Source: Acidaminococcus fermentans
GTDB taxonomy: Bacteria; Bacillota_I; Bacilli_A; RF39; UBA660
Reading direction: 5' to 3'
DNA: 60,089 nucleotides
Assembly: GCA_963660495.1 (NCBI GenBank)
Contig: CAVKYO010000052.1
Span: 1 to 60,089, forward strand
Numbering within the stretch: the stretch's first letter is position 1; every line of letters starts with the position of its first letter. Under the pieces are notes generated by a model that saw only the letters and a program-made list of their open reading frames with translations, was not told the DNA's origin and made no database searches. A program made the position numbers and the translations under genes. This document shows positions 5,487-58,588 of this stretch, piece by piece.

Positions 5487-6977
5487 TTAGTTATTTTTAA
5501 CAGTTTTTTGTTTGTTAACTATTAGTGTACCAATAGAAATTAGGAGTATTATTCCAAGAACGATGTAGCAAGCTGATACTGTTTCAGGATTGGCTATTTT
5601 ATTGTATATTGCTGTAACGGTTACTTTACCTTCTGGCATTATAAAGGTTCCATCATCAGTTACTTCTATTTCTTTGCCAGATTCAGTCATAACAACAATT
5701 CTTTTTAAAGTGTATCCAGCTTTTGGAGTAACATTTACTTTTATTTCTTCACCCGGTATCGCACTTGTTGCGTCTACTGCGATTTGTCCTTCTTCAGTTA
5801 CTTGTTTAGCAATGGCAAAGACTGGATATATAAAGTTTAGCTGAGCAATTCCATCTGCTCCTCTTGATATAAGTATAATTCCATTCTGAGTTCCAGTAGT
5901 ATCATAACTATTTAAAGCATAATTAACAAAATATGTTTCATCTTCATCATAAATTTCTTCCATTATTAGGTTACCTTGTAAATCGTACTTTAAAATAGCA
6001 CTTCCAAATGTTTCAGTATCTAAAGCACTTACTATATAACCGTCATATGTACCATTTGGAAGATGACTACTTTTTATAGTAAATTGTTCATAGCCTGGAA
6101 CTGTCTTTTTAAATACTTCTTTACCTGATAAATCATACTTGGCAAAATATTCATTTTCATAATCTGTTCCTATAACAATGATACCATCTACTTCCCCGGT
6201 AGCTGTATAACTTAGATTCATTTTATTTATGACATAGTCTGTTTCTATTTCAAATAAGTCTTCATCATCATTATATCTATATATTATTGACTCATATTCA
6301 TTATATTCAAATGTTGAATCATATTTTCCATTTTTTATATATATTAGTCCAGACCAAGGTTCGCCGTCAAATTCATGTGTATATAAATCGTTATGAAAAT
6401 CAGTTATATTTTTTTCAAATACAAGATTGCCTTTTAAGTCATATTTAATTAAAACGTCACCATAGCCAGTTGAAGTATTGATTGATGAGGTCCATAGTGA
6501 TATATAATATCCATCATGTTTGCCAGATTCGTCGTAACTTTTAAAGGCTCTATCGATCCATTCGCTACCAGAGCCGCCATATTGTCTTTCAAATATAGTT
6601 TTACCAGTAGTAGAATCTACTGCCGTAACTAAAAGATCGGTTTCTCCTTTTACTTCGTACTTAGAATTACCATTCCATATTTCTGTTACTTCTATACCCG
6701 TTGTTGCATCACCATTTTTTATGTAGTATACTTCATTTTCTCCTAAGTCATGCTTTATTAATTCTAAATTACCATTGGAAAAGAATAGATAGCCATCTGG
6801 TTGTCCTTTATTATTATAACTGGGATAAATTGACTCAATCTTTCCTAAAATATCTGTATTGTTTGTTGTTGATAATTTTATATCAATTGCATTAACATGT
6901 AATGGTAGTATACAAACTGACGTAATAATTAGTATTGATAATATTTTATTAAAACGTTTCATAATCAACCTCTCCAT
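5487..6977 (-). CDS. Secreted repeat protein (beta-propeller-like repeats plus an InlB-B-repeat-like Ig domain) with a C-terminal TM anchor
   Basis: 496 aa with a signal peptide (ILSILIITSVCILPLHVNA). At least 4 repeats of roughly 55-65 aa with the signature DGY...hhKYDL.GN.h.E. Then an AGYTLKRIVV...DGTFIMPEGKVTVTAIY module and a terminal TM helix plus a basic tail. Confidence 0.6.
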   Translation of the reverse strand: MERLIMKRFNKILSILIITSVCILPLHVNAIDIKLSTTNNTDILGKIESIYPSYNNKGQPDGYLFFSNGNLELIKHDLGENEVYYIKNGDATTGIEVTEIWNGNSKYEVKGETDLLVTAVDSTTGKTIFERQYGGSGSEWIDRAFKSYDESGKHDGYYISLWTSSINTSTGYGDVLIKYDLKGNLVFEKNITDFHNDLYTHEFDGEPWSGLIYIKNGKYDSTFEYNEYESIIYRYNDDEDLFEIETDYVINKMNLSYTATGEVDGIIVIGTDYENEYFAKYDLSGKEVFKKTVPGYEQFTIKSSHLPNGTYDGYIVSALDTETFGSAILKYDLQGNLIMEEIYDEDETYFVNYALNSYDTTGTQNGIILISRGADGIAQLNFIYPVFAIAKQVTEEGQIAVDATSAIPGEEIKVNVTPKAGYTLKRIVVMTESGKEIEVTDDGTFIMPEGKVTVTAIYNKIANPETVSACYIVLGIILLISIGTLIVNKQKTVKNN

Positions 6978-7091
6978 CTTAATATAATTGTAGCAATAAA
7001 TTTGAATTTTGTCATTATTTTTATTTTATTAATTTTTAGCCAAGTCATTATAAAAGACTTTAGTATTATCCGCTAAAGTCTTTGTTTTTTA

Positions 7092-8855
7092 TTATTTTCT
7101 AATTGTTTTATTAATAATTTCTTCTTTTATTAACTTTATAAATTCTTCTTTAGATACTGTAGTTGTATCTTTTTGACCAAACAATCTATAACTTATTGTT
7201 TCATTTTCTTTTTCTTGGTCTCCTAATATTAATGTGAATGGAACTTTTTCTGTTTGAGCTTCTCTTAAACGATATCCTAGTTTTTCATTACGGTCATCTA
7301 ATTCCGCTCTAATATCATGTTCTTTTAACATTTCAGTTACTTCTTTGGCATATTCTCCTTGGAATTCTGGATTTACAGGAATTACTTTTACTTGTACAGG
7401 TGAAAGCCATGTTGGAAGTTGACCTTTTGTTTCTTCTAGAATGTAGGCCATAAATCTGTCTAGTGAACCTAGTATTGCTCTATGAAGAACAACTGGTGTT
7501 TTCTTTTCGCCATCTTTATCTACATATTTTAAATCAAATTTAGCTGGTAAGCAGAAATCTAATTGGCAAGTTGATAAAGTATATTCATTTCCAACAGCTG
7601 GTTGAACATTAACATCTAGCTTTGGTCCATAGAATGCTGCTTCACCAAGTTCTTCTGTGTACTCAATTCCTAAATCATTTAAAACTTCTCTTAATTCATT
7701 TTCAGCTTTATTCCACATTGCGTCATCTTGATGATATTTTTCTTTATCTTCTGGATCTCTCAATGATAGAACGCAACGATAGTTTTTGATATCAAAGTCT
7801 TTATATACACTAAATATTAAATCAACAACATTTTTAAATTCATCTTTTATTTGTTCCGGTGTTACAAATAGATGGGCATCGTTTTGACAGAAGTGTCTTC
7901 CTCTTTCAATTCCTTTTAGAGCACCTGATGCTTCATATCTAAAGTCATGAGCAACTTCACCTATTCTAATTGGTAAGTCTTTATATGAATGTAGTTTGTT
8001 AGAATAAATCATCATATGATGCGGACAGTTCATTGGACGTAGAACGAATTCTTCGTCATCAACTTTCATCATAGGAAACATATTTTCTTTATAATGTTCC
8101 CAGTGTCCTGATGTTTTGTATAGTTCTACATTGCCAACGCATGGAGTTAAAACATGTTGATAACCTAGTTTTCTTTCTTTTGCTTTGATGTAGTTTTCCA
8201 ATTCTTCCCAAATGATATATCCATTAGGTAGAAACATTGGTAATCCTCTACCTACTAAATCATCTGTCATGAATATTTCTAATTCTTTACCTATTTTTCT
8301 ATGGTCTCTATTTTTACAGTCTTCTAAATATTCTAAGTGTTTATTTAAGTCTTCTTCTGTTTCAAAACAAATACCATAAATACGTTGAAGCATTTTATTT
8401 TTTGCATCACCTTTCCAGTAAGCTCCTGATACTTTTAGTAATTTAAAATATTTTAATTCTTTTACAGTATCTAAATGTGGTCCACGGCAAAGGTCAGTAA
8501 AATCACCTTGGCTGTAGCAAGAAATAGTAACTTCATTTTCATCCATACGAGAAATTAAATCAATTTTATATGGATCATCTTTAAATTTTTCTAAAGCTTC
8601 TTCTTTTGATAATTCATGACGTACTATTCTTTTTCCATCTTTAGCAATTTTTTTCATTTCTTTTTCAATAGCTGGTAAATCTTCTTCTGTTAATGTTTTG
8701 TCACCTAAGTCTATATCATAATAGAAACCTTCTTCAATTACTGGTCCTACCCAAAATAGTGCGTTTGGATATAAATGTTTAACAGCTTGTGCTAGTAAAT
8801 GGGCACATGAATGATTCATTACACTTAATTTTTCATTTTCTTTTATATTTATCAT
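7092..8855 (-). CDS. thrS: Threonine--tRNA ligase (lacks the N-terminal TGS domain)
   Basis: Editing-domain motif HSCAHLLAQA is near the N-terminus; class II core (RPMNCPHH, FRYEASG, QNDAHLF) is present. An AGGAGG lies inside the first 8 ORF codons, so the start is placed at the second ATG (MINIKEN). A T-box lies upstream. Confidence 0.9.
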   Translation of the reverse strand: MINIKENEKLSVMNHSCAHLLAQAVKHLYPNALFWVGPVIEEGFYYDIDLGDKTLTEEDLPAIEKEMKKIAKDGKRIVRHELSKEEALEKFKDDPYKIDLISRMDENEVTISCYSQGDFTDLCRGPHLDTVKELKYFKLLKVSGAYWKGDAKNKMLQRIYGICFETEEDLNKHLEYLEDCKNRDHRKIGKELEIFMTDDLVGRGLPMFLPNGYIIWEELENYIKAKERKLGYQHVLTPCVGNVELYKTSGHWEHYKENMFPMMKVDDEEFVLRPMNCPHHMMIYSNKLHSYKDLPIRIGEVAHDFRYEASGALKGIERGRHFCQNDAHLFVTPEQIKDEFKNVVDLIFSVYKDFDIKNYRCVLSLRDPEDKEKYHQDDAMWNKAENELREVLNDLGIEYTEELGEAAFYGPKLDVNVQPAVGNEYTLSTCQLDFCLPAKFDLKYVDKDGEKKTPVVLHRAILGSLDRFMAYILEETKGQLPTWLSPVQVKVIPVNPEFQGEYAKEVTEMLKEHDIRAELDDRNEKLGYRLREAQTEKVPFTLILGDQEKENETISYRLFGQKDTTTVSKEEFIKLIKEEIINKTIRK

Positions 8856-12189: not shown

Positions 12190-13107
12190 TCATACTAATT
12201 CATATTCTCTAACAGCAATTCTATCATCTGAGCAATATTCTATTACTAATCTATTTTCTTTTTTACAAATAATAATTCCAATTGTTTTATTTTGATTAAT
12301 TTTTTTAATATTTTTATCTATATAATTCATATATACTTGTATTTGTCCAATATGTTCTTTTTTTAGTTCTGTTACTTTCAACTCTATAACTACATAACAA
12401 TTATATTCAATATTAAATAATAATAAATCAATATAATTATATCTATCACCAAGTTTTATTTTAAATTCATTACCAACATAAGAAAAGCCATAACCTAATT
12501 GTGACAAGAACTCATCTAGATTATTAAGTATTAACTCTTTTAAAGTATATTCACTAAATTTATCATGGTCTTTACTATCTTTTATTAATATTGGATTAGG
12601 AACAATATCACTTACTACTAATCTTTCTTCAGATACTAATTTATTTCTAGTTTCTATGGATAACCTATTATATTCATTACTAATTATTTTTTCATGAAGT
12701 TCTCTTTTAGTTAAATTATTTTTTTCACAAATTTCTATATAATATATTATTTCTTCAATTTTTTTTAACACAAGCAATTCTCTATAATGGCTCCAATTCA
12801 ATTTTGTACCCATTGGGTACAATTTTTCATTACTGAAAACCTCATAAAATTTTCTCATTTTGTATAATGTACTAACTTTATATTTAGAGCCCACTTCAAT
12901 CATTAACTTTTCTGAATATTGTTTAATGATATTTTTACCATATTCTTTTCCTGCTTCATGAAGTAATTTACCAGTTTCAAAATATACTTTAATCTTATTT
13001 CTATCTTTTGAATAATCTTTAACTTTATCATATAATTCACTTTTAATTAAATTTTCTTTTATTTCATCATAATAATTCATAATTTCTTTTCCTTTTCTAT
13101 TGTTCAC
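12190..13107 (-). CDS. PDDEXK nuclease, YhcG/DUF1016 family
   Basis: 305 aa. C-terminal PD-(D/E)xK core (IDLLLF...VVIELKVTELKKEHIGQIQVYMNY) typical of DUF1016. The ORF start overlaps the comEC stop; an alternative start at 13080 follows an AAGGAA. Confidence 0.65.
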   Translation of the reverse strand: MNNRKGKEIMNYYDEIKENLIKSELYDKVKDYSKDRNKIKVYFETGKLLHEAGKEYGKNIIKQYSEKLMIEVGSKYKVSTLYKMRKFYEVFSNEKLYPMGTKLNWSHYRELLVLKKIEEIIYYIEICEKNNLTKRELHEKIISNEYNRLSIETRNKLVSEERLVVSDIVPNPILIKDSKDHDKFSEYTLKELILNNLDEFLSQLGYGFSYVGNEFKIKLGDRYNYIDLLLFNIEYNCYVVIELKVTELKKEHIGQIQVYMNYIDKNIKKINQNKTIGIIICKKENRLVIEYCSDDRIAVREYELV

Positions 13108-15190
13108 ATGTTTCTATCGTGTACCCATCACTTTTAATCTTAATTTCTATACTTCCATCCTTATCAGTTCGATAAATTTTACTATTCTTTAAAGTATTCA
13201 ACACAGACTTTTTTGGATGTCCATACTTATTGTTCTCTCCTACACTAATTAAACTATATTTAGGATTAATACTATTTATAAATTCCTTACTGCTACTTGT
13301 ATCAGAACCATGATGTCCTACCTTTAAAAAATCTATATTTTCAATATTATATTCATTTAAAATATCTTTTTCCTTCTTAGTGCTGGCATCTCCCATGAAT
13401 AAAAATTGATAATTATTATAATTAAAATAAGTAACAGTTGAATTATCATTTTCATTGTCATATACACTTGTATTTAAAAATAAAAATTTATTATTAAAGA
13501 CACTTAATTCACTTATATTTTGATAATAATTTATTTTCTTTTTGTTTAAAACTTCAATAATATTTTCTTCTAAATAATTATAATCTCCAACATTAAAAAT
13601 GACATTTTTCACAGAAAAATTATTTATTAAATTAATGGTCTCACCTAAATGATCTTGATCACCATGAGTTAAAATTAAATAATCTATTTTTCTTATACCA
13701 GAAGATTTAAATACTGGTATCGTAGTATTTTTAACAAGAGAATATTCCTTATTGCTTTTAGACCATGATGGCTTATTATAAGTTACTTTGCCTCCCGTAT
13801 CTATTAGTACAGTTTCTCTGCCAGAATATATAAGAATAGAATCTCCTTGGCCTATATCTATCATCTTTATTATTAAATCTTTTTGAAAATATGGATAAAT
13901 GTAATGAATTAGTAATAAAAAAAATAAAGGGATTAATTTAAAATAATTTTTTTTTAATAATCCTTTAATAAAAATAATTATTAAGACATAATAACTAATA
14001 TAAAAAATAAAATTAATTCTTGGAAAAGTTATTATTAATAATCTGTTGTTACTAAAAAGTAGTGATACTTCTTCTAAAATTTTAATTAGTACCTCATATA
14101 TTGGCAAAATAACTGGGACAACAAGAGTAATTAATGATAAGGGAAAAACAATGATACTTACATATGGAATAAAAAATAAATTATAAAATATACTTGAAAT
14201 ATTAATTTGATAAAAACTATATAGACTAATTGGTATACTTACTAGAAATGATATAATAGAAGTCTTTAATAGACCTAGTAAATAATTACTACTTGTTAGA
14301 TACTTTGCAGTTACAATTAAAGAGAAACTTATAACAAAGGAATACCAAAATCCAACATCGAATATGTAATTATAATTAATAAGTAAAGATAATGATAATA
14401 TTATAATAAAAATATTTACGGGTTTTACATAAAAATAATAAACTTTATTTAAAGTAAATAATATGTAGAATAATACGCCTCTTAAGATAGAGGGAGAAAA
14501 GCCTACTAAAAGTAAATATATTATTAAAATTAAGGAGGTAATATAATAACGTTTTTCTTCTTTCACTTTAAATCTTTTTAATATTTTTGTAATAATTGAT
14601 GATAATAAAGTTATATGCATACCGGATATAGCGAATAAGTGACTTATACCATTTTCTTGATAACTTGACATTACTTTAGTACTTAAATTCGACTTATCTC
14701 CTAATAAAAATGTTTTTAAATAAGCATTTTTTTCTGATAAATTGACGATTATATTTTTTAATATGTAATAAATGTTTTTATTACTAGATATTTTTTTTAT
14801 ACTTGTTGAGGTTATTGTATAATGAATATTTTTATGTTTTAAATATGAATGATAATTAAAAAGATATTTAGAGGTATTTTTCTTAGGTTTTGTTAATTCT
14901 CCAGTTACTTCTATGGTGTCTCCAAGATGAAATTCTTCTTTAAAATTTGCTTTTTCTTCTTCAGTTTCAAAATAATATGTTACTAATAACTTTTCTTTAT
15001 TTTTAATTGTTAGACTTAGTTTATTACCAGAAATTGATGAAGATATTATCTTGGCTTTTATACTTTTTATATTTTCATTATATATACTTTCTCTTGGTAT
15101 GCAGAGATTTATTATTGTGATAAATATAGTAATTAAAAGTAAAATATAATATATATAATCATGTAGTAATAGAGTCCTTAATTTGAGCAT
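13097..15190 (-). CDS. comEC: DNA internalisation competence protein ComEC/Rec2
   Basis: 697 aa. Polytopic competence domain plus a C-terminal metallo-beta-lactamase domain (LTHGDQDHLG, GHHGS). Confidence 0.9.
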   Translation of the reverse strand: MLKLRTLLLHDYIYYILLLITIFITIINLCIPRESIYNENIKSIKAKIISSSISGNKLSLTIKNKEKLLVTYYFETEEEKANFKEEFHLGDTIEVTGELTKPKKNTSKYLFNYHSYLKHKNIHYTITSTSIKKISSNKNIYYILKNIIVNLSEKNAYLKTFLLGDKSNLSTKVMSSYQENGISHLFAISGMHITLLSSIITKILKRFKVKEEKRYYITSLILIIYLLLVGFSPSILRGVLFYILFTLNKVYYFYVKPVNIFIIILSLSLLINYNYIFDVGFWYSFVISFSLIVTAKYLTSSNYLLGLLKTSIISFLVSIPISLYSFYQINISSIFYNLFFIPYVSIIVFPLSLITLVVPVILPIYEVLIKILEEVSLLFSNNRLLIITFPRINFIFYISYYVLIIIFIKGLLKKNYFKLIPLFFLLLIHYIYPYFQKDLIIKMIDIGQGDSILIYSGRETVLIDTGGKVTYNKPSWSKSNKEYSLVKNTTIPVFKSSGIRKIDYLILTHGDQDHLGETINLINNFSVKNVIFNVGDYNYLEENIIEVLNKKKINYYQNISELSVFNNKFLFLNTSVYDNENDNSTVTYFNYNNYQFLFMGDASTKKEKDILNEYNIENIDFLKVGHHGSDTSSSKEFINSINPKYSLISVGENNKYGHPKKSVLNTLKNSKIYRTDKDGSIEIKIKSDGYTIETCEQ

Positions 15191-15830
15191 ATATACTATC
15201 TCCTATACCGGGTACTTGTTTGATATCTTCAATTGTTTTAAATGGACCATTGGTATTTCGATATTCTATTATTTGTTTAGCTTTTGATTGACCTATTCCT
15301 GTTAAAGTTGATAGTTCTTCTTCTGTTGCGGTATTTATTGATATTAAATTGTTACTATCAGATGATTGTTCTATACAAGCATCATTTTTTAAAGAGTTTT
15401 CATCTTTTTGGACGCATGATTCTTGGACTTGTTTTTCTATTTCTTTAGTCTTTTTAAAGTCTTCTACTTCAGAATTACTATAGACTATAATTACCATTTC
15501 ATCAGTTATTTTTTTACTTAAATTTAGAACAGTCGTATTGGCATTTTCTGTTAAGCCGCCAGCTAATTCTATACAATCTATTATTCTAGATGTACTTTTT
15601 AAAGTATAAATACCGGGATTTACTACTTCTCCTTTGATATCAATTTTATATTCTTCACTTATCACCTCTTTAGTTTCTTCTTTTTTTAGTGAGACTTTTT
15701 CTTCTTTTATCTTTTTTTCTTTAGGTCTATTACATACATATATTACTGAAATAGTTGTGATAAAGATTAAGATAAGACTCACTATAATTATTTGTTTACG
15801 ATATCGATAATGAAATGTTATTTTTATCAC
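15159..15830 (-). CDS. comEA: Competence DNA receptor ComEA (SLBB plus helix-hairpin-helix)
   Basis: TM anchor, SLBB motif (IKGEVVNPGIYTL), C-terminal HhH pair (LSTLTGIGQSKAKQIIEYR...IKQVPGIG). The exact start is uncertain because the GTG abuts an AGGAGG. Confidence 0.85.
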   Translation of the reverse strand: MIKITFHYRYRKQIIIVSLILIFITTISVIYVCNRPKEKKIKEEKVSLKKEETKEVISEEYKIDIKGEVVNPGIYTLKSTSRIIDCIELAGGLTENANTTVLNLSKKITDEMVIIVYSNSEVEDFKKTKEIEKQVQESCVQKDENSLKNDACIEQSSDSNNLISINTATEEELSTLTGIGQSKAKQIIEYRNTNGPFKTIEDIKQVPGIGDSIYAQIKDSITT

Positions 15831-15851
15831 CTCCTACTTTATTATTCGAAA
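15827..15851 (-). promoter_or_regulatory. 25-nt shared element (copy 1), cin-box-like TTCGAATA, upstream of comEA
   Basis: The minus strand reads TTTCGAATAATAAAGTAGGAGGTGA, identical over 25 nt to 50362-50386. It directly follows the terminator of the DHH gene. Confidence 0.5.
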
Positions 15852-15887
15852 AAAAAAGAAAAGTCTTAAAGAAATTTTAAAACTTTT

Positions 15888-16967
15888 CTAATCTTTTACT
15901 TTTACATACTGTTTTTCAGTCATTATAGACGAATCTGTAGGATAATCTGTAGAAGTATTATTTAGTTTTTCTTCTAAAATACTTTTTAGTTTTTCTTCTA
16001 CAGAAATTACATCTGTTGATTGTATTTTACAAGCTGCACTTCTAGTATTGCCTCCTCCTGTAAACTCTTCCATTATTTCACCGACATCAATGTATCCTTT
16101 GCTTCTAGCACTTATAGATATTAATCCATCATTTACAAATCCAATAGCAAAAGAGGCATCTGTTTGATATTTTTGGGCTTTATCAGCTGCTTTTGCTAGA
16201 TCTTCTTTTCTGTATCTTTTATTTGGATTTTCTCTATTTAAAGTAAAACTTATTTGATAGTGCTGGTAATGAGCAAATAAAGTACCATTGTAAACTAAGT
16301 TATTAACACGCTTGTCAGCTTCGAATTCAGCTAAGAAAAGTTCATTAACATAGTCAGGATTAGCACCATGGATTATTAATTTTTCAGCGACATCGTGTGT
16401 AACGGAGCTAGTATTTTTTTTGTACCTATTAGTATCCAGCTCTATTCCAGCTAATAAGTAATTAGCAACATTAGCGTCATATCTTACCTTACAAGAATTT
16501 AATAGTTTAGAAACTAGTTCAGCTGATGATGAGGCTTTTGAATTTATGTAACTAGCTGTTGCGGGAATAGTATGTTGGTCTGGATTATGGTGATCAATTA
16601 TTACAACATTTTGAAATCTATCAAGAAAAGGAGTAGCCGATACTTGATACTTTTTATTAGCGTCTACTACTATTAATGTAGAATCTTTATCATCTCTTGT
16701 TAAATCTATAAAGTCATTTAATTTTATGATATGATATTGTCCCTTGTTGATATCTATTATTCTTTTTACTCCAGGTTCTAAACTAACATCATCATCGTCT
16801 ACTATTATATATGATTCTTTTCCAAAAGACTGACACAACGTAAGCATCCCAATTGCTGATCCTATGGAGTCAAAGTCTGGTTCACTGTGTCCTGTTATAA
16901 ATATTTTGGATGACATTTTTATAATTCTAAGTAATTCTGGTTTGAGATCTCTACATACCTCAGGCAT
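15888..16967 (-). CDS. DHH/DHHA1 family phosphoesterase (NrnA-like)
   Basis: 359 aa. Motifs ITGHSEPDFDSIGS, VVDAN, IIDHH and the DHHA1 motif GGGNTRSAA. Confidence 0.75.
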   Translation of the reverse strand: MPEVCRDLKPELLRIIKMSSKIFITGHSEPDFDSIGSAIGMLTLCQSFGKESYIIVDDDDVSLEPGVKRIIDINKGQYHIIKLNDFIDLTRDDKDSTLIVVDANKKYQVSATPFLDRFQNVVIIDHHNPDQHTIPATASYINSKASSSAELVSKLLNSCKVRYDANVANYLLAGIELDTNRYKKNTSSVTHDVAEKLIIHGANPDYVNELFLAEFEADKRVNNLVYNGTLFAHYQHYQISFTLNRENPNKRYRKEDLAKAADKAQKYQTDASFAIGFVNDGLISISARSKGYIDVGEIMEEFTGGGNTRSAACKIQSTDVISVEEKLKSILEEKLNNTSTDYPTDSSIMTEKQYVKVKD

Positions 16968-17539: not shown

Positions 17540-18214
17540 TTAATAATTCCCAGTATCTTTTAGAGCATACCATAAATCATAGAATGTTCCATCAAGTTTA
17601 ACTGCTAAAGTAGTAACACCATTAGAAGTTTCTGCATTAGAAAGTTTAATTACTTCGTCTACACCTGATATTTTTCCATATGAAACTGGTCTGTCTTGTG
17701 CATTATTAAACATATGAACAATAGGAATATATTCTACTGTACCATCTTCTAATAATATAAATAGTGTATCACCTTGTGCATCTTGTCCCATTCCACCAAA
17801 TAATACCTCTACAATTTTTTTATCAAAGTTAATTGTAGAACTTACACGATCAGTTCTATTACTTGTCCAATTTAATCCGTAAGCTTCTACTGCTTTAGAT
17901 GGAATATAACTGAAAGTTAATACTTTCTGAGTAGTATCTACTTGTGCATTTATTCCATTTGGACCAAAATCAGCTATTAGATATTCACTTACGCTACTAT
18001 TTAATGCTTTTTTATTATCAAATGGACTTACTGCATTCTTAAAATTTGAAGCATTTACTTCTACCTTATCACTTTTTGTTACTGTAGTTTCCTTATCAGA
18101 TGTTTTTTCAGATTCTAAGTAAAAGTATGCTGTACTACCTAATGCACATACTAGTAATATTACTAGAACAACAATTACTGTTAATGAATTTTTCCCTTCT
18201 TTTTTCTTTTCCAT
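17540..18214 (-). CDS. Membrane-anchored protein, paralog A of a tandem pair
   Basis: 224 aa. The N-terminal 35 aa (MEKKKEGKNSLTVIVVLVILLVCALGSTAYFYLESE) are almost identical to paralog B. Shared C-terminal motifs: GG.GQ, DGT.EY.PI, VIKL, DG.FYDL. Confidence 0.7.
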   Translation of the reverse strand: MEKKKEGKNSLTVIVVLVILLVCALGSTAYFYLESEKTSDKETTVTKSDKVEVNASNFKNAVSPFDNKKALNSSVSEYLIADFGPNGINAQVDTTQKVLTFSYIPSKAVEAYGLNWTSNRTDRVSSTINFDKKIVEVLFGGMGQDAQGDTLFILLEDGTVEYIPIVHMFNNAQDRPVSYGKISGVDEVIKLSNAETSNGVTTLAVKLDGTFYDLWYALKDTGNY

Positions 18215-18415: not shown

Positions 18416-18420
18416 TATTT

Positions 18421-18437
18421 TTTCGAATAATAAAGTA
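18421..18437 (+). promoter_or_regulatory. Third, partial copy (17 nt) of the shared TTTCGAATAATAAAGTA element, opposite orientation
   Basis: Exact 17-nt match on the plus strand, preceded by a T-rich tract like the other two copies. Confidence 0.35.
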
Positions 18438-18476: not shown

Positions 18477-19175
18477 TTATTCCCAAGCTTTGATACTTGT
18501 TAGGGATTCATGTAAATCATAGAAAGAACCATCTGCTTTTTGTGCAAGTACTGTTACATAGCTTCCAGCAGATACTTGATATAATTTAATTACATCTTTT
18601 ACTTCTGGAATAGTACCATAAGTTGTTTTAATATTATCTGGACTATCAGCTTTATATGCCTTTGCTATAGGAAGATATTCAATAGTTCCATCTTTCATTA
18701 AGAATAACATTGTGTCATGGCTTGCCTCTTGACCAAAGCCACCAATCATAACTTCTGATACTTCTTGTTCAAAAGTCATTTCTCCACGTCTTTCTTGTAT
18801 TCCATAGTCACAACTTTCTTCATTTGCAGTTACCCAACCTAGACTATATGTGAAATTTACTCCACAAGGTGATAGAGATACTGTTGCTTTTTTTCTATTG
18901 ACATCCAAAGCTAAATTTATTACTCTATTACCTGCCATTAAAGTATAAGTCTTATCAGTAGTATTTAAAGATTTACTATTGTCAAAGCCATTTACGGCTA
19001 CAGCTTTTTCAGTATTATCATTCTTACTAGCTTTACCCGTAACTACAGTTTCCTTTCCAGTTGCTCTTTCAGATTCTAAGTAAAAGTATGCTGTGCTACC
19101 TAATGCACATACTAGTAATATTACTAGAACAACAATTACTGTTATTAAATTTTTCCCTTCCTTTTTCTTTTCCAT
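18477..19175 (-). CDS. Membrane-anchored protein, paralog B of a tandem pair
   Basis: 232 aa. Same N-terminal module and C-terminal motifs as paralog A. Its own terminator is GTCAG-tacctagcgtg-CTGAC plus a T-run at about 18440-18470. Confidence 0.7.
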   Translation of the reverse strand: MEKKKEGKNLITVIVVLVILLVCALGSTAYFYLESERATGKETVVTGKASKNDNTEKAVAVNGFDNSKSLNTTDKTYTLMAGNRVINLALDVNRKKATVSLSPCGVNFTYSLGWVTANEESCDYGIQERRGEMTFEQEVSEVMIGGFGQEASHDTMLFLMKDGTIEYLPIAKAYKADSPDNIKTTYGTIPEVKDVIKLYQVSAGSYVTVLAQKADGSFYDLHESLTSIKAWE

Positions 19176-47417: not shown

Positions 47418-47582
47418 TTAACAAAAAGTCCTAAATTTCAACAAATATCGACATAAAGTGCCTACAAAAGTACCAAATTCATATAAGGATTTAATTATTT
47501 CATATATAAAAGGTATACTAAAAATTACAATTATTGCAACTATTAGTTTCCAATATTTTTTTATAATTATTCTAAAGGACAT
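47418..47582 (-). CDS. 54-aa single-TM protein, candidate bacteriocin immunity protein
   Basis: Not in the ORF track: MSFRIIIKKYWKLIVAIIVIFSIPFIYEIIKSLYEFGTFVGTLCRYLLKFRTFC. Its ATG is embedded in the last codons of peptide B (16-nt overlap), with a GGTGA 9 nt upstream. Confidence 0.4.
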   Translation of the reverse strand: MSFRIIIKKYWKLIVAIIVIFSIPFIYEIIKSLYEFGTFVGTLCRYLLKFRTFC

Positions 47583-47743
47583 AAATTATTTTCACCAAGT
47601 CTTCTTATTGATGATCCAAATCCTTTACCAGCGTCATACATCATTCCAATTATTTTAGTAAATGCACTAATAACAGTTCCTGAAATACTACTGCTACTAC
47701 CTGCATATATTTTTTTTAAGTCCATATCACTTTCCTTTTTCAA
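47567..47743 (-). CDS. Bacteriocin precursor peptide B (double-glycine-type leader ending AG)
   Basis: Not in the ORF track. The TTG start overlaps the TGA of peptide A (GGTTGA), with a GGGAGGTG 6 nt upstream. Leader (M)KKESDMDLKKIYAG, mature SSSSISGTVISAFTKIIGMMYDAGKGFGSSIRRLGENNLCPLE. The alternative ATG at 47725 has a weaker RBS. Confidence 0.6.
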   Translation of the reverse strand: MKKESDMDLKKIYAGSSSSISGTVISAFTKIIGMMYDAGKGFGSSIRRLGENNLCPLE

Positions 47744-47880
47744 CCATTACACCTCCCTGGATTAGTGAAGCCATCAAGTACACCTGAAATAAAAATTATT
47801 AAAGCTGCTATGCCAACAAGGGCTAAGACTGATACACCACCTGTTACCTTTTGTAATTCTAAATTATTAACTTTTTTCAT
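47740..47880 (-). CDS. Bacteriocin precursor peptide A (double-glycine leader)
   Basis: Not in the ORF track. The ATG lies 3 nt after the accessory-gene stop, with a GGGTGAG RBS. Leader MKKVNNLELQKVTGG, mature VSVLALVGIAALIIFISGVLDGFTNPGRCNG. Confidence 0.7.
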   Translation of the reverse strand: MKKVNNLELQKVTGGVSVLALVGIAALIIFISGVLDGFTNPGRCNG

Positions 47881-47883
47881 TAC

Positions 47884-48285
47884 TCACCCTTCCCATATAA
47901 TATTAAATATTTTAAATAATCCTATACGCTTATCTTTAAAACTTAGTTCTACTATATCGCCATCATTTAAAGACAAGCTTGTTTCCAATAAAACTAAATT
48001 GTATTTATCATTACTTGAAACAAATATATTATTATCTACTTTTCTAATAGAAAAGCTTTTCTTCTTATTATCTATATATAAATTACTATTTTTATAAATA
48101 ATATTCATATCCTTATCTTTAATATAAAGTTCTACTAAATTCTTTTTTTTAACTCTACCAATAATCAAACTATAACTATTAATTTTCTTACTATAAGTAT
48201 AAAAACAAAGTCCAAAAAACAGTGTAAATAAAAGTACTACTAAAAATATAACAATTCCTTTCTTCTCATAATTTACTAATTTCAT
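47884..48285 (-). CDS. Small membrane-anchored accessory protein of the bacteriocin exporter (putative)
   Basis: 133 aa with an N-terminal TM helix (IVIFLVVLLFTLFFGLCFY) and a beta-rich ectodomain. Overlaps the exporter stop by 20 nt. It occupies the LcnD/HlyD-type accessory slot but is much shorter. Confidence 0.45.
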   Translation of the reverse strand: MKLVNYEKKGIVIFLVVLLFTLFFGLCFYTYSKKINSYSLIIGRVKKKNLVELYIKDKDMNIIYKNSNLYIDNKKKSFSIRKVDNNIFVSSNDKYNLVLLETSLSLNDGDIVELSFKDKRIGLFKIFNIIWEG

Positions 48286-50347
48286 ATATTCTACCTTTTT
48301 CCAATTTTAAGACTCGATTAAACAACTTATTAAAATTATTTCTATGACTAATAACAATAACTGTCTTATCTTTTAAATATTCTAATACATTTTTTAGAAT
48401 AACTCTTGTTTTGTCTATATCTATCTGGCTAAAAGCCTCATCAAAAATATAAATATCACTCTTCCTAGTTAATGACCTAGCTAATATAATTCTTTGTTTC
48501 TCACCAGAACTAAAGTTAAATCCATTCTCTTCTACTAATTTTTGATAACCTAATCTGTCGTTTTTAACAATTTCATCAACTTTAGTAATCTTTGTAATCT
48601 TTAAAAACTCTTCTTTAGAAACATTCTGATTAAGCGTAATATTATTATAAAGTGTATCTGTAAATAAAGAATCATTATTACTAATATACGTAATATTATT
48701 TCTTATGTTATCCAAATGATAATGATTTATATCAATATTCTTAATCGATATAAAACCATATGGTACATTAATATATCTCATAAGCAATTTAACTAATGTA
48801 CTTTTTCCAGATCCAGATTCGCCTGTTAATAATACTTTATCCATATAAGAAATATTAAGTCTTAAGTTATTAAATAAATGTTTTTCTCCCAAATTATAAT
48901 TCAAATTGTTTATAATAACATCTCCATCTAAACGACACATTAAATAATATCCTTTACCATTAAACCTTTCCGTCCTAATGGTAAATAAATCTTCGATTCT
49001 TTCTAATGATAATTTAAAATCATGATAGCCAGTGTATAGGTTCAATAAATTTTCAAAGCAATATAGATAATAACTAAATATATTTTGATACACAAATAGT
49101 TGCCCTAAACTCATCTTATCAGATACAACAAAAAAGCATCCATAGCCAAGTATTACAATTAGCAACAAATTATTACTAATATTTTTTAGAAATAAAAATA
49201 ATTCTTCGAATAAATTAGAACTATAACTTTTTTCTAATAATTTCTGATACTTTATTTTAAAAACATCTGTGATTTTCTTTTCTAAATGACTACCTTTAAT
49301 AGTCTCAATATTAGTAATAGACTCAATCAAATAAGAATTGATTCTATCATTATAAACATTGACCTTTCTAACTTTTATAACTCTAAAATGGTTAAATATT
49401 ATTTGTGTAAAAAATAAAACAGTGCATATTAGAAAAACTATAATAAATATTTTTTTATTTAATCTAAACATTATAAAACTAAATAAAAGAAAACCTATCA
49501 AATCTGAAAATAACATACAACAAAATTGTCCTAATAAGTTCTTAATAATGTTTAAATCCCTAATTCTAGAAATAATCTCACCCGTTGTTCGATTCTTAAA
49601 ATATAAATACGGAAGTAAGAGAATATGCTTAAACGTTATAAAAGTAATTTCTAAATCCAGTTTACTTAAAATTTTTGTTAATAAAATATTTCTCATAAAA
49701 TTAGTAAATTCTTTGAAACAATAAAGGCAAAAAATGTAGATGCTCAAAAAAGTAATCAAGTTGCTTATTTTATAATTAACTGAAAATTCTAATAAATATT
49801 TAAAATGGAAGGTAGTTATGATTTGAAATAAAAAATAAATAAAAGTTAAAATGACAATTAATATTACAAACATTTTATTTTTCTTAATAAATTCTTTTAA
49901 TATCTTACGAATAATTTTACTTTTATTAAAAACTGGCAATGCTTTAACTGGCTTTAAAAATATATAATTCATACTAGACATTAATTTAAATTCACTAATA
50001 TTTAAAACTACTTTTCCCTTTGCTGGATCCATAATAAGCATTTTATTTTTTTTTAAATCAATGTCATAAATAACAACAAAGTGCTTATAGCCTTTATTAA
50101 CGATAATATGAGCAAGACAAGGTAAGTTATTTTTTTCTATTTTTGACAGGTCTCCTTTCATACCTATCGCATCAAATCCCACACTTTTAGCACCTTCTAT
50201 TAAATCATAAGCTGACACTCCAGACTTGTTTGTATTAGTAAGTTCTCTCAAATATTCCTTAGATACATCCCCATCATAAAATCTAATAACAGAAAGTAAA
50301 CAACAAATACCACAGTCTTTAATGCCATCTTGTAATACAACTTTCAT
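48266..50347 (-). CDS. Bacteriocin-processing ABC exporter with N-terminal C39 peptidase domain
   Basis: The N-terminus MKVVLQDGIKDCGICC carries the catalytic Cys; the His lies in KHFVVIYD. Six-TM domain, Walker A GESGSGKST, signature FSSGEKQRI, Walker B IYIFDEAFS. The ATG at 50347 is preferred over the track GTG at 50365. Confidence 0.9.
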   Translation of the reverse strand: MKVVLQDGIKDCGICCLLSVIRFYDGDVSKEYLRELTNTNKSGVSAYDLIEGAKSVGFDAIGMKGDLSKIEKNNLPCLAHIIVNKGYKHFVVIYDIDLKKNKMLIMDPAKGKVVLNISEFKLMSSMNYIFLKPVKALPVFNKSKIIRKILKEFIKKNKMFVILIVILTFIYFLFQIITTFHFKYLLEFSVNYKISNLITFLSIYIFCLYCFKEFTNFMRNILLTKILSKLDLEITFITFKHILLLPYLYFKNRTTGEIISRIRDLNIIKNLLGQFCCMLFSDLIGFLLFSFIMFRLNKKIFIIVFLICTVLFFTQIIFNHFRVIKVRKVNVYNDRINSYLIESITNIETIKGSHLEKKITDVFKIKYQKLLEKSYSSNLFEELFLFLKNISNNLLLIVILGYGCFFVVSDKMSLGQLFVYQNIFSYYLYCFENLLNLYTGYHDFKLSLERIEDLFTIRTERFNGKGYYLMCRLDGDVIINNLNYNLGEKHLFNNLRLNISYMDKVLLTGESGSGKSTLVKLLMRYINVPYGFISIKNIDINHYHLDNIRNNITYISNNDSLFTDTLYNNITLNQNVSKEEFLKITKITKVDEIVKNDRLGYQKLVEENGFNFSSGEKQRIILARSLTRKSDIYIFDEAFSQIDIDKTRVILKNVLEYLKDKTVIVISHRNNFNKLFNRVLKLEKGRIYEISKL

Positions 50348-50361
50348 AACGTCTTTTTCTC

Positions 50362-50386
50362 TCACCTCCTACTTTATTATTCGAAA
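50362..50386 (-). promoter_or_regulatory. 25-nt shared element (copy 2), cin-box-like TTCGAATA, upstream of the bacteriocin exporter
   Basis: The minus strand reads TTTCGAATAATAAAGTAGGAGGTGA, identical to 15827-15851. A T-rich tract lies immediately 5'. Confidence 0.5.
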
Positions 50387-50413
50387 TAAAATTAACTTTC
50401 CCACAGAAAAATG

Positions 50414-50441
50414 CAAAAAAAAGAAACAATTTCTTGTTTCT
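50414..50441 (-). terminator. Rho-independent terminator upstream of the bacteriocin operon
   Basis: The minus strand reads AGAAACAA-gaaa-TTGTTTCT followed by TTTTTTT. Confidence 0.65.
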
Positions 50442-50780
50442 TAATGTAGGGAGTGATTAGTCGTGTTATTCTAAAAAATATATTTTAACATGAGAAACAA
50501 ATATTAGTTAAAATAATCTCCCTACAGCTTTATAATAACACAGTTTCTTTTTGTAAACAAGTACTTTACTGAACAAAAATTTTGGCATTCATATAAAAGT
50601 CCTTTTATATATAAAAATATGATAAGTCTAATTATAGTATAATAAAATTCTTGTAATGCTGTGTAATTTTTATAATGATTCCATGAAGTTGCGGAAAATG
50701 TTGGTGATACCGTAGAAACATTAAATAATTTAAAAAAGTCTTAAAAATAAGATGTAAATAAGACGTAAAAATAACAAAGC

Positions 50781-50817: not shown

Positions 50818-50894
50818 TGGTGTCCGCGAGGCGACTCGAACGCCTGACCGATCGCTTAGAAGGCGATTGCTCTATCCAGCTGAGCTACGCAGAC
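50818..50894 (-). tRNA. tRNA-Arg (anticodon UCU), CCA encoded
   Basis: 77 nt: GTCTGCG-TA-GCTC-AGCTGGATA-GAGC-A-ATCGC-CTTCTAA-GCGAT-CGGTC-AGGCG-TTCGAGT-CGCCT-CGCGGAC-A-CCA. All four stems pair. Confidence 0.9.
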
Positions 50895-52870: not shown

Positions 52871-53398
52871 ATGAAAACAGTTAATAATACACAAACAGTA
52901 AAGCGCGATGACTATATTTCTTGGGATGAATATTTTATTGGAATTGCTAAACTGTCATCTATGCGAAGTAAAGATCCAAGTACACAAGTTGGATGTTGTA
53001 TAGTTAGTCAGGATAACAGAATTTTATCTGTCGGATATAATGGTGCTCCTAATGGTTTTGATGATGATTCTTTTCCTTGGGCACGCATTGGTGAAAAACT
53101 AGAGACAAAATACATGTATGTTTGTCATAGTGAGTTAAATGCAATTTTAAATTATCGTGGAAATACGCAAGATTTACAGGGTTCTAAGATATATGTTAGA
53201 TATTTTCCTTGTAACGAATGTGCTAAGGCTATAATTCAGTCTGGTATAAGAGAAGTTATTTATTCACATTCTTATGACTATGATAATCATAGTGAGGAAA
53301 TGGAAGCTTCTATTAGAATGTTTGATAAATGTGGTGTTAAGTATAGAAAGTTTGTGCCAGAGAATAAAAAGGAAATTGTTTTACATTTGGAAGATTAG
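52871..53398 (+). CDS. dCMP deaminase (ComEB-type)
   Basis: 175 aa. Zinc motifs HSELNAI and PCNECAKAI. Confidence 0.85.
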   Translation: MKTVNNTQTVKRDDYISWDEYFIGIAKLSSMRSKDPSTQVGCCIVSQDNRILSVGYNGAPNGFDDDSFPWARIGEKLETKYMYVCHSELNAILNYRGNTQDLQGSKIYVRYFPCNECAKAIIQSGIREVIYSHSYDYDNHSEEMEASIRMFDKCGVKYRKFVPENKKEIVLHLED

Positions 53399-57745: not shown

Positions 57746-57850
57746 CTAAATAATTATATGCTATTAAAATAAAATTTTTGTTGCTAGTTTTTTGTTTTTT
57801 CTAGGAAAAATTATTTTTTTCAGAATAATAAGTATGAGGAGATGTTAATT

Positions 57851-58588
57851 ATGGATGAAAATATTGTTACTTTCAAGTCTAAATTTGAAGAAATTAAAAG
57901 TAAAGGTTGGATAGAAGCCAGTTCTAACGGTCGTGGAAATGTGGGCATCACATTTGAAAAAGAGCTTGGTCTCAGTGCCAACCGTTCTGAAAACCCAGAT
58001 TTTAAAGGTATTGAAATAAAAACTAAGCAAAGCAATTTGTATGAGTATGTTACTCTTTTTAGTTCTTCTTTTGATGGTATGTTTCCATTTGAAATGAAAA
58101 GAATTTCTGAAAATTATGGTATGTACGATGAAATATGCCAGAATGCAAAAGTCTTTTTTGGTATTATGCGTGCTAGCGAATTTACAAGAATTGGTAAAAA
58201 ATGGAAATTTAAATTAGATGTTGACTACATCGAAAGGAAAGTATATTTAGCTGTATATGACAATAATAATGTCATTATTGATAGACAAAGTTATTGGAGT
58301 TTTGAACTACTAAAAAGACGTCTAGAAACTAAATTAAATTATTTAGCTTTTGTTTCTGCTAAAAGAAATTTTTTTCATAACAAGGTTTATTTTTTATATT
58401 ATGACGCTAAGCTATTGAAACTAAAGGATTTTGAAACATTTCTTTTCTTACTTGAAAAAGGTATCATTCGTGTTAGCTTTAAAGTTGGTGTATATAGATC
58501 AGGTCCTAAATATGGAAACTATTATGATCACGGAACAAGTTTTGAAATACGTGCTGACGATCTTAACTGTTTGTTTTATACTTTATAG
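57851..58588 (+). CDS. MvaI/BcnI-family type II restriction endonuclease-like protein (solitary)
   Basis: KGWIEASSNGRGNVGITFEKELGLSANRSENPDFKGIEIKTK and the C-terminal YDHGTSFEIR match the family layout as I remember BcnI. Start is taken at the second ATG, 9 nt after AGGAG. Confidence 0.55.
   Translation: MDENIVTFKSKFEEIKSKGWIEASSNGRGNVGITFEKELGLSANRSENPDFKGIEIKTKQSNLYEYVTLFSSSFDGMFPFEMKRISENYGMYDEICQNAKVFFGIMRASEFTRIGKKWKFKLDVDYIERKVYLAVYDNNNVIIDRQSYWSFELLKRRLETKLNYLAFVSAKRNFFHNKVYFLYYDAKLLKLKDFETFLFLLEKGIIRVSFKVGVYRSGPKYGNYYDHGTSFEIRADDLNCLFYTL

Follow-up and report, generated by a model that had tools for sequence, protein, structure and literature searches.

The same element of 25 nucleotides (nt) stands directly in front of two operons in contig CAVKYO010000052.1 of assembly GCA_963660495.1 (Acidaminococcus fermentans, GTDB lineage RF39; UBA660), which was analysed over a stretch of 60,089 nt (hereafter the window). 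The operons are comEA-comEC-yhcG and that of a C39-peptidase ABC exporter with two double-glycine-leader peptides. We propose that the element is a ComX/SigH-family promoter, independent of a -35 box and fused to a Shine-Dalgarno (SD) sequence at the 5' end of the transcript, which would co-induce both operons; we consider this reading likely, with reservations that are given below. To judge from the sequence, DNA uptake and bacteriocin export are probably switched on together, as in streptococci. Promoter and regulon are of a known kind, in a new lineage.

Two identical copies of the element

On the minus strand, positions 50386 to 50362 and 15851 to 15827 both read TTTCGAATAATAAAGTAGGAGGTGA, identical at 25 of 25 nt, as a preliminary description of this DNA had claimed, and a search of the window allowing up to three mismatches returned these two sites (50362-50386 and 15827-15851) and no other. 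None of 100 dinucleotide-preserving shuffles matched the 25-mer, which, together with the conservation of the module in distant relatives (see below), upholds the claim that the match did not arise by chance. Both copies are preceded by a T-rich stretch and lie before the gene that opens an operon, as first described: copy A (15827..15851, minus strand) before comEA and copy B (50362..50386, minus strand) before the exporter operon. The module consists of a T-run, a cin-box-like -10 element TTTCGAATAA, the segment ATAAAGT and AGGAGGTGA. Its first 17 nt recur as a third exact copy on the plus strand (18421-18437) within copy C (18418..18437, TTTTTTCGAATAATAAAGTA), where SD and downstream open reading frame (ORF) are absent; all three copies read TTTCGAATAA.

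Alone, the 8-mer core has no significance in DNA of 28% G+C: TTCGAATA occurs five times and TACGAATA three times in the window, about the chance expectation, so the signal is the long identity and not the core. A palindromic operator centred on TTCGAA was ruled out by the asymmetry of the flanks, and a DNA uptake sequence or mobile-element end by the small number of copies and the absence of flanking homology; the -10 and -35 patterns of the sporulation sigma factors (E/F/G/K) fitted inconsistently and were rejected.

Each operon needs its own promoter near the element, because terminators lie immediately upstream of both copies. Before comEA, an AT-rich hairpin with a T-run (15857..15889, minus strand; -16 kcal/mol, z = -3.9), which begins after the stop codon of the upstream DHH-family gene, forms the intrinsic terminator of that gene, and its T-tail is the T-tract of module A; the same arrangement of hairpin and T-run before comEA is seen in relatives too. 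Before the exporter, the terminator hairpin GAAACAAGAAATTGTTTC with its T-run (50415..50440, minus strand) lies about 30 nt upstream of module B, the hairpin being identical in L118, L119, L121 and L128 (related loci and contigs are designated by L numbers).

Agreement with ComX/SigX and SigH promoter motifs

The cross-clade streptococcal cin-box at the -10 position is TTNCGAATAA (review, PMC9300618), and TTTCGAATAA matches it exactly. The core had been described as one base away from the cin-box; its resemblance stands, being exact for the generalised form, but as an 8-mer alone the core proved non-significant. The RNA-seq-based pneumococcal ComX motif is TTTTTNHNNNYTHTTMCGAATADWNWRRD-[TSS] (TSS, transcription start site; PMC6560143). 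Compared with TTMCGAATADWNWRRD-[TSS], the window element fits at all positions from YTHTT to the end except M, T taking the place of M as the one mismatch to TMCGAATA (PMC6560143). The 7 nt after CGAATA, ATAAAGT, fit DWNWRRD at 7 of 7 positions, and the proximal YTHTT positions fit as well; the distal TTTTT is matched at three of five positions before comEA and at one of five before the exporter. This fit to the extended motif predicts that transcripts start with the A of AGGAGG, on the minus strand at 15835 and 50370. The 16 nt beyond the ribosome-binding site (RBS), for which the preliminary description had sought an explanation, are accounted for by such an extended sigma recognition site. 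Scoring of the window with the IUPAC pneumococcal ComX consensus was non-discriminating (shuffles score alike) and was not used for regulon prediction.

There is no conserved -35 element at either operon, the upstream regions sharing T-richness only. Scored against the sigma-A consensus, the comEA site reaches 9/12, no better than chance; the sigma-A promoter of the neighbouring DHH gene is a perfect TTGACA-17-TATAAT (12/12, 17023-16995), and those of rpsU and tRNA-Arg score 11/12 and 10/12. In terms of the SigH-type -10 (RnnGAATww), GAATAA is invariant in ten comEA regions and present at the exporter in five of eight lineages. Sequences resembling a SigH -35 occur at 10-nt spacing as AGGAC (L006), AAGAC (window comEA) and GGGAAAG (window exporter), of which those at comEA are part of the terminator stem, and L139, L145, L154 and L157 have none. 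The idea of a SigH-type -35 (AGGA) with constant spacing, at first attractive for L006/L040 and the window exporter, was rejected for want of conservation.

It had also been cautioned that the box lies very close to the SD. The short distance is real and is no objection, since it is the normal layout: the cin-box of prx lies at most 21 nt from the start codon and gives about 100-fold induction by XIP (PMC6224593), and the SigH promoters of Listeria, with a -10 of GGCGAAT or GnAGAAT, lie 19-22 nt from comGA and comEA (PMC4754846).

Occurrence before streptococcal and phage competence genes

A scan with the 17-mer, one genome per species, gave at least 117 loci, about 85% of them noise; in the related genomes comEA was the only site among the matches listed, a result unreliable as a census. 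Every Streptococcus-type site among the matches listed lies directly upstream of a competence-related gene: dprA (L002 and L051, S. equinus dprA included), comGA of S. ictaluri (L068), two prepilin peptidase genes (L039, L084), an ssbB-type gene (L087) and paratox (L016). In the two prepilin peptidase genes the ATG follows directly after AAAGT, as expected if transcription starts there. Scans with box plus SD added six metagenome and eight viral sites of streptococcal or phage type, mostly before paratox genes, and the first 22 nt of the 25-mer stand unchanged before prx genes. Paratox (prx) is SigX-dependent (PMC6224593), and the late genes of ComX include dprA, cclA, ssbB, comEA/EC and cibABC (PMC6560143); of the gene types that carry the 17-mer, dprA, comGA, prepilin peptidase and ssbB all count among ComX late genes. 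The suggestion of an alternative-sigma, cin-box-type promoter has gained support from the consensus fit, from these streptococcal sites and from conservation in relatives.

Conservation of the module in relatives

The relatives are uncultured, spore-forming (spoIIIAH, gerE, gerM, yabP and yqfD lie nearby) and of 25-30% G+C. We compared ten comEA upstream regions of about 57-99% ComEC identity; L125 (76%), L126 (64%) and L158 (57% ComEC identity) were reached via ComEC homologues and not via the motif. All ten regions have a T-run, GAATAAT, four to five A/T-rich bases and TAGGAGG, GAATAAT and TAG being invariant, and GAAT is preceded by C, by A (L125) or by T (L145, L158).

The four-gene exporter operon keeps its synteny down to 55% identity, and the module precedes the exporter orthologues of L128-L135, L143, L147 and L154-L157. 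The upstream sequence is TTTTGAATAAT... in the 99% identical contig L118, TTTAGAATAAT... (carrying AGAATAAT...) in eight contigs of a 90% species, and TGCGAATAATAAAGTAGGAGGTG, which carries CGAATAATAAAGTAGGAGGTG, in L154-L157 (two lineages, 55-57% identity). Here the base before GAAT is A in L128 and T in the 99% identical strain (L118). Degenerate copies occur in L121 (CATAATAATAAAAGTAGGAGG), L119 (TCGAAAGATATATATAGGAGG) and L123 (TTGATAATAATATAGTAGGAGG). The identity is extended to 25 nt by a strain-specific C only, 21 of the 25 nt being common to comEA and exporter in other species, and assembly GCA_029099845.1 has the module at both genes (comEA, L158; exporter, L157). Since both carry the module in distant lineages, the sharing of one module by comEA and exporter is old and no quirk of one strain.

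Two nuclease gene types have the 22-25-mer in front of them as well, each with an ATT start: PDDEXK_2 (Rpn-like) in six related contigs and DUF1016_N (YhcG-like) in L142. PD-(D/E)XK nuclease genes are found in company with the module (window 12190-13107, L127, L142, L040/L136). No box was found upstream of recA in L142, a gene (6575-7628, minus strand) that is split into two overlapping ORFs by a frameshift or an assembly error.

Alternative explanations

Several observations weigh against a ComX/SigH-type promoter or limit the case for it. The C of CGAATA, fixed in the streptococcal consensus, varies at both genes, and L119, L121 and L123 have lost GAAT from the exporter promoter and kept an AATAAT/ATATAT-like hexamer plus TAGGAGGTG, a pattern also expected of a sigma-A -10. 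No sigma factor gene of any kind was found in the 60-kb window or in about 200 kb of related loci, a SigH-type -35 (RnAGGAwWW, 11-12 nt upstream of the -10 block) is not conserved, and tblastn searches with streptococcal ComGA, DprA, SsbB and CclA against the window and the related loci returned no further competence gene. Most comEA sites from the 17-mer scan were ascertained by exact motif match. At the exporter, a distance of 15-17 nt separates AGGAGG from the ATG, more than a normal SD allows, so that the conserved AGGAGGTG there needs another explanation. Our confidence stays short of firm because a sigma-A -10 AATAAT would also account for the varying C and for the degeneracy of three exporter promoters, because no sigma factor gene lies in the window, and because the SigH-type -35 is unconserved. 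A housekeeping sigma-A promoter would have a weak or absent -35, AATAAT as its -10 and the T-tract as an UP-like element; there would be no competence-specific co-regulation, and the operons would look alike from a shared need for a compact promoter-plus-RBS layout. The hexamer AATAAT does lie 17 nt downstream of a conserved GTGGGA/TAGGGA in exporter relatives, it persists as CATAAT, GATAAT or ATATAT after the loss of GAAT (L121, L123 and L119, respectively), the comEA site of L125 reads TAGAAT (5/6 against the sigma-A -10), and the base before GAAT varies freely. However, neither operon has a TTGACA-like -35, while the genuine sigma-A promoters of the window are canonical, and the conservation of the G of GAAT and of the AAAGT segment goes far past the needs of a -10 hexamer. 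Moreover, the 22-mer is by experiment a SigX-dependent promoter in streptococci, and it stands here before competence-like genes (comEA/EC, nucleases, bacteriocin export), not housekeeping ones. We regard a sigma-A promoter as unlikely, if well worth keeping in mind. The variable C before GAAT fits the Listeria SigH -10 (GGCGAAT, GnAGAAT) better than strict ComX.

If the element acted at the RNA level, transcription would come from elsewhere, and an A/U-rich enhancer with the 10-nt perfect SD AGGAGGUGAU, complementary to the 3' end of 16S rRNA, would aid initiation at AUA/AUU codons or give STAB-SD-like protection. The comEA, PDDEXK_2 and DUF1016 genes do start with ATA or ATT 7-8 nt after AGGAGG, and TAGGAGGTG is the only fully invariant block of the exporter alignment and yet lies 15-17 nt from the ATG. 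But the terminators immediately upstream of both copies mean that a transcript must start within the module, the invariant GAAT is unnecessary for an A/U-rich enhancer, copy C has the box without the SD, and the streptococcal counterparts are proven promoters. As a substitute for a promoter an RNA-level function is quite improbable; it is probably an added layer and not an alternative. It is extremely improbable that the identity arose by chance, or that it stems from a recent, functionless local copying or gene conversion event in this strain only. The C that completes it is indeed strain-specific (T in L118, which is 99% identical, and A in the eight contigs of the 90% species), and cin-box-like 8-mers abound in AT-rich DNA. 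Against this, the shuffles gave no match in 100, 21 of the 25 nt are common to comEA and exporter elsewhere, the module is at both genes at 57% protein identity, and the identity ends at the module edges, homology in the flanks being absent.

Proposed mechanism

Under a ComX/SigH-type promoter, an alternative sigma factor would read TTTCGAATAA as its -10 element, ATAAAGT would be the A-rich segment before the transcript start, and transcription would begin with the A of AGGAGGTGA, on the minus strand at 15835 and 50370, so that the mRNA would open with the SD. With the identical module just behind a terminator in each operon, both would be silent until the sigma factor appears and would then be induced jointly. 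The first, comEA-comEC-yhcG, would provide a DNA receptor, a DNA channel and a PD-(D/E)XK nuclease, and the second the C39 exporter, a 133-amino-acid accessory protein and two class IIb-type double-glycine-leader peptides; competence would in this way be coupled to the killing of neighbours or the release of their DNA.

With 15-17 nt between it and the ATG, the invariant TAGGAGGTG of the exporter may also work at the RNA level, stabilising the 5' end or serving as a standby site, and the regular use of ATA/ATT starts points to possible gating at translation. For module genes, a non-AUG start after a perfect SD of 10 nt is apparently the rule. A further variant, decidedly unlikely in our estimate, has no separate ComX: the sporulation-initiation factor SigH itself or a close derivative would read the cin-box, streptococcal in style and independent of a -35, the regulon would be gated at translation, and competence, allolysis and entry into sporulation would be under one switch. 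If true, each mRNA would open with the perfect 10-nt SD and AUA or AUU would be the start of most members, so that initiation fidelity (IF3) would bear on the entire regulon, and the regulon would be small, comprising DNA uptake genes, PD-(D/E)XK nucleases and the conserved two-peptide exporter.

Comparison with known systems

The SigX and prx cin-box promoters of streptococci share with the module the match to TTNCGAATAA, the upstream T-tract, which a terminator often supplies, the A-rich DWNWRRD segment, the lack of a -35, an SD at or next to +1, a start codon within about 25 nt and comEA-comEC as a target. The differences lie in the host, a spore former of about 28% G+C in the class Bacilli outside the Lactobacillales (yabP, yqfD, spoIIIAH, gerE and gerM nearby), in the T before CGAATA in place of A or C, in the C that varies in relatives and in the non-AUG starts. 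In a spore former a SigH-type factor is expected. The SigH promoters of Listeria monocytogenes (comGA, comEA, coiA; PMC4754846) likewise have a -10 ending in GAAT with a variable base before it, lie 19-22 nt from the gene and include comEA among their targets; the -35 that defines them (AAAGGAWTT, spacer of 11 nt) lacks conservation at the present sites. Also counted with Listeria among the nearest systems are Staphylococcus aureus and Latilactobacillus sakei, whose competence genes are SigH-driven.

In cibABC of S. pneumoniae, a ComX-dependent two-peptide bacteriocin with immunity that acts in fratricide, two double-glycine-leader peptides stand behind a cin-box as here, possibly with a small hydrophobic ORF beside the peptides in the window as well. 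Unlike cibABC, the operon contains a C39 ABC exporter, first in order, and an accessory gene, and occupies a syntenic core locus instead of a variable island, with peptides that are conserved down to 55% exporter identity and have one Cys each. STAB-SD is a 5' mRNA stabiliser of Bacillus thuringiensis cry3A; the exporter resembles it in having an SD-like sequence at the predicted 5' end of the mRNA, 15-17 nt from the start, whereas the comEA copy is correctly spaced (8 nt) and is presumably a real SD.

Competence regulons under ComX/SigH-type sigma factors have been described in Streptococcus, Lactococcus, lactobacilli, Staphylococcus and Listeria. Here the same cis element is found, almost base for base, in an uncultured low-G+C spore-forming gut lineage, and by its conservation it marks out a candidate regulon of comEA-comEC-yhcG, a two-peptide export operon and two PD-(D/E)XK nuclease families. 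This offers a route to predict, and perhaps to induce, natural transformation in an uncultured group, with 15835 and 50370 as precise, testable 5' ends, and suggests that the coupling of DNA uptake to peptide-mediated killing may be older or more widely spread than the streptococcal examples.

The comEA-comEC operon

The comEA gene (15159..15821, minus strand; Pfam SLBB and HHH_3) matches NCBIfam TIGR01259 with E = 1.3e-30 and 105.8 bits, against a cut-off of 152.35. The end of comEA is overlapped by comEC (13097..15190, minus strand; Pfam Competence, Lactamase_B and DUF4131), and the end of comEC in turn by 11 nt of a gene for a YhcG/DUF1016 PD-(D/E)XK nuclease (12190..13107, minus strand); yhcG and comEC are probably in one transcript, and the same overlap of the two is found in L127. 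A look-up for proteins identical to the ComEC of the window returned no record.

We take as the start of comEA the ATA at 15821-15819, 8 nt after AGGAGG. The codon aligned to it is ATG in L009, TTG in L001 and ATT in L139, while at least seven genomes have ATA. The non-AUG starts of module genes were noted in the window, L040, L136, L139, L142, L145 and L158. The preliminary description had held both start codons to be ambiguous because a GTG abuts the SD. This did not hold, the starts being the ATA at 15821 for comEA and the ATG at 50347 for the exporter: the GTG falls outside the reading frame at comEA in L139, L145 and L001 and, at the exporter (50365, within the SD), in L123.

The exporter operon and its peptides

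The exporter gene (48266..50347, minus strand; Pfam Peptidase_C39, ABC_membrane and ABC_tran) is assigned its ATG start at 50347 on the grounds that the C39 domain begins at residue 2 and that the relatives are called at 693 amino acids. The nearest NCBIfam models are bacteriocin_ABC and then the Mbov_0121 family, both below cut-off. The second gene (47884..48285, minus strand) encodes a membrane-anchored accessory protein of 133 amino acids, conserved in all relatives, whose sole NCBIfam match, to the MAG1140 family, is weak and below cut-off. Mbov_0121 and MAG1140 are both Mycoplasma families.

Two peptide precursors follow, peptide 1 (47740..47880, minus strand) with the double-glycine leader MKKVNNLELQKVTGG and peptide 2 (47567..47725, minus strand) with the leader MDLKKIYAG, which has GG in L119 and L123. 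Peptide 1 matches NF038034 (lactococcin G-beta/enterocin 1071B) with E = 1.4e-4 and 21.9 bits against a cut-off of 37, and TIGR03949 with E = 0.004; peptide 2 has no NCBIfam match. A C39 peptidase-ABC exporter with two adjacent double-glycine-leader peptides is the layout of a class IIb locus. Conservation of the mature peptides remains good at exporter identities as low as 55% (L118-L124, L128, L154-L157), with a single conserved Cys in each near the C-terminus (NPGRCN, NLCPLE). A hydrophobic ORF of 54 amino acids (47418..47582, minus strand) is a weak candidate for the immunity protein; at its position a 54-amino-acid gene is called in L157 as well.

Downstream of the operon lie rpsU, yabP and yqfD. 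The exporter locus belongs to the syntenic core, between gerM/tRNA-Arg and rpsU, and not to a variable island. The tRNA-Arg(TCT) gene (50818-50894, minus strand) has its own promoter and terminator. Between it and the exporter a conserved unit (about 50413-50557, minus strand) comprises an RNA of about 110 nt, the sigma-A-like promoter before it (TTTACA-17-TATAAA) and a terminator. This RNA (fold z = -3.3) could be a small RNA or an exporter leader. It has a long-range stem GTAGGGAG/CTCCCTAC, which in L119, L121 and L128 reads GTAGGAAG/CTTCCTAC, one compensatory change; RNAalifold did not choose this stem. A search of Rfam found tRNA-Arg and an S15 leader and no match for the structured element upstream of the exporter; the ribosomal S15 leader (RF00114, 28403-28517, minus strand) lies upstream of rpsO.

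On the other strand, 2.5 kb from the exporter, a dCMP deaminase gene (52871-53398, plus strand) of the family of B. subtilis ComEB lacks the box; the TGTTAAAAT that precedes it is, in our reading, an extended -10. A perfect copy of TACGAATAAT lies antisense within the exporter gene (49906-49915, plus strand) and is probably due to chance, given the frequency of the 8-mer.

Other box-like sites

Directly before a gene for an MvaI/BcnI-family restriction endonuclease (57842-58588) lies the box-like sequence TTTTTTTCAGAATAATAAGTATGAGGAG (57812-57841, plus strand). With its C out of place and a shorter AAAGT segment, this box (CAGAATAATAAGTA) is treated here as unproven.

Copy C, the best match of the window to the extended ComX motif, shares 20 nt with the comEA copy when its T-run is included, and the homologous site in L006 reads TTTTTTGAATAATAAAATA. 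It points antisense into the gene at 18477..19175 and overlaps the terminator T-tail of that gene; it may be an antisense or small-RNA promoter. In pneumococcus, ComX sites occur before non-coding RNAs (PMC6560143). The gene is one of two tandem paralogues (17540-18214 and 18477-19175, minus strand) of 224 and 232 amino acids, which have an N-terminal membrane helix and no Pfam match. Copy C lies between the two, which agree completely in their first codons and in the 40 nt upstream.

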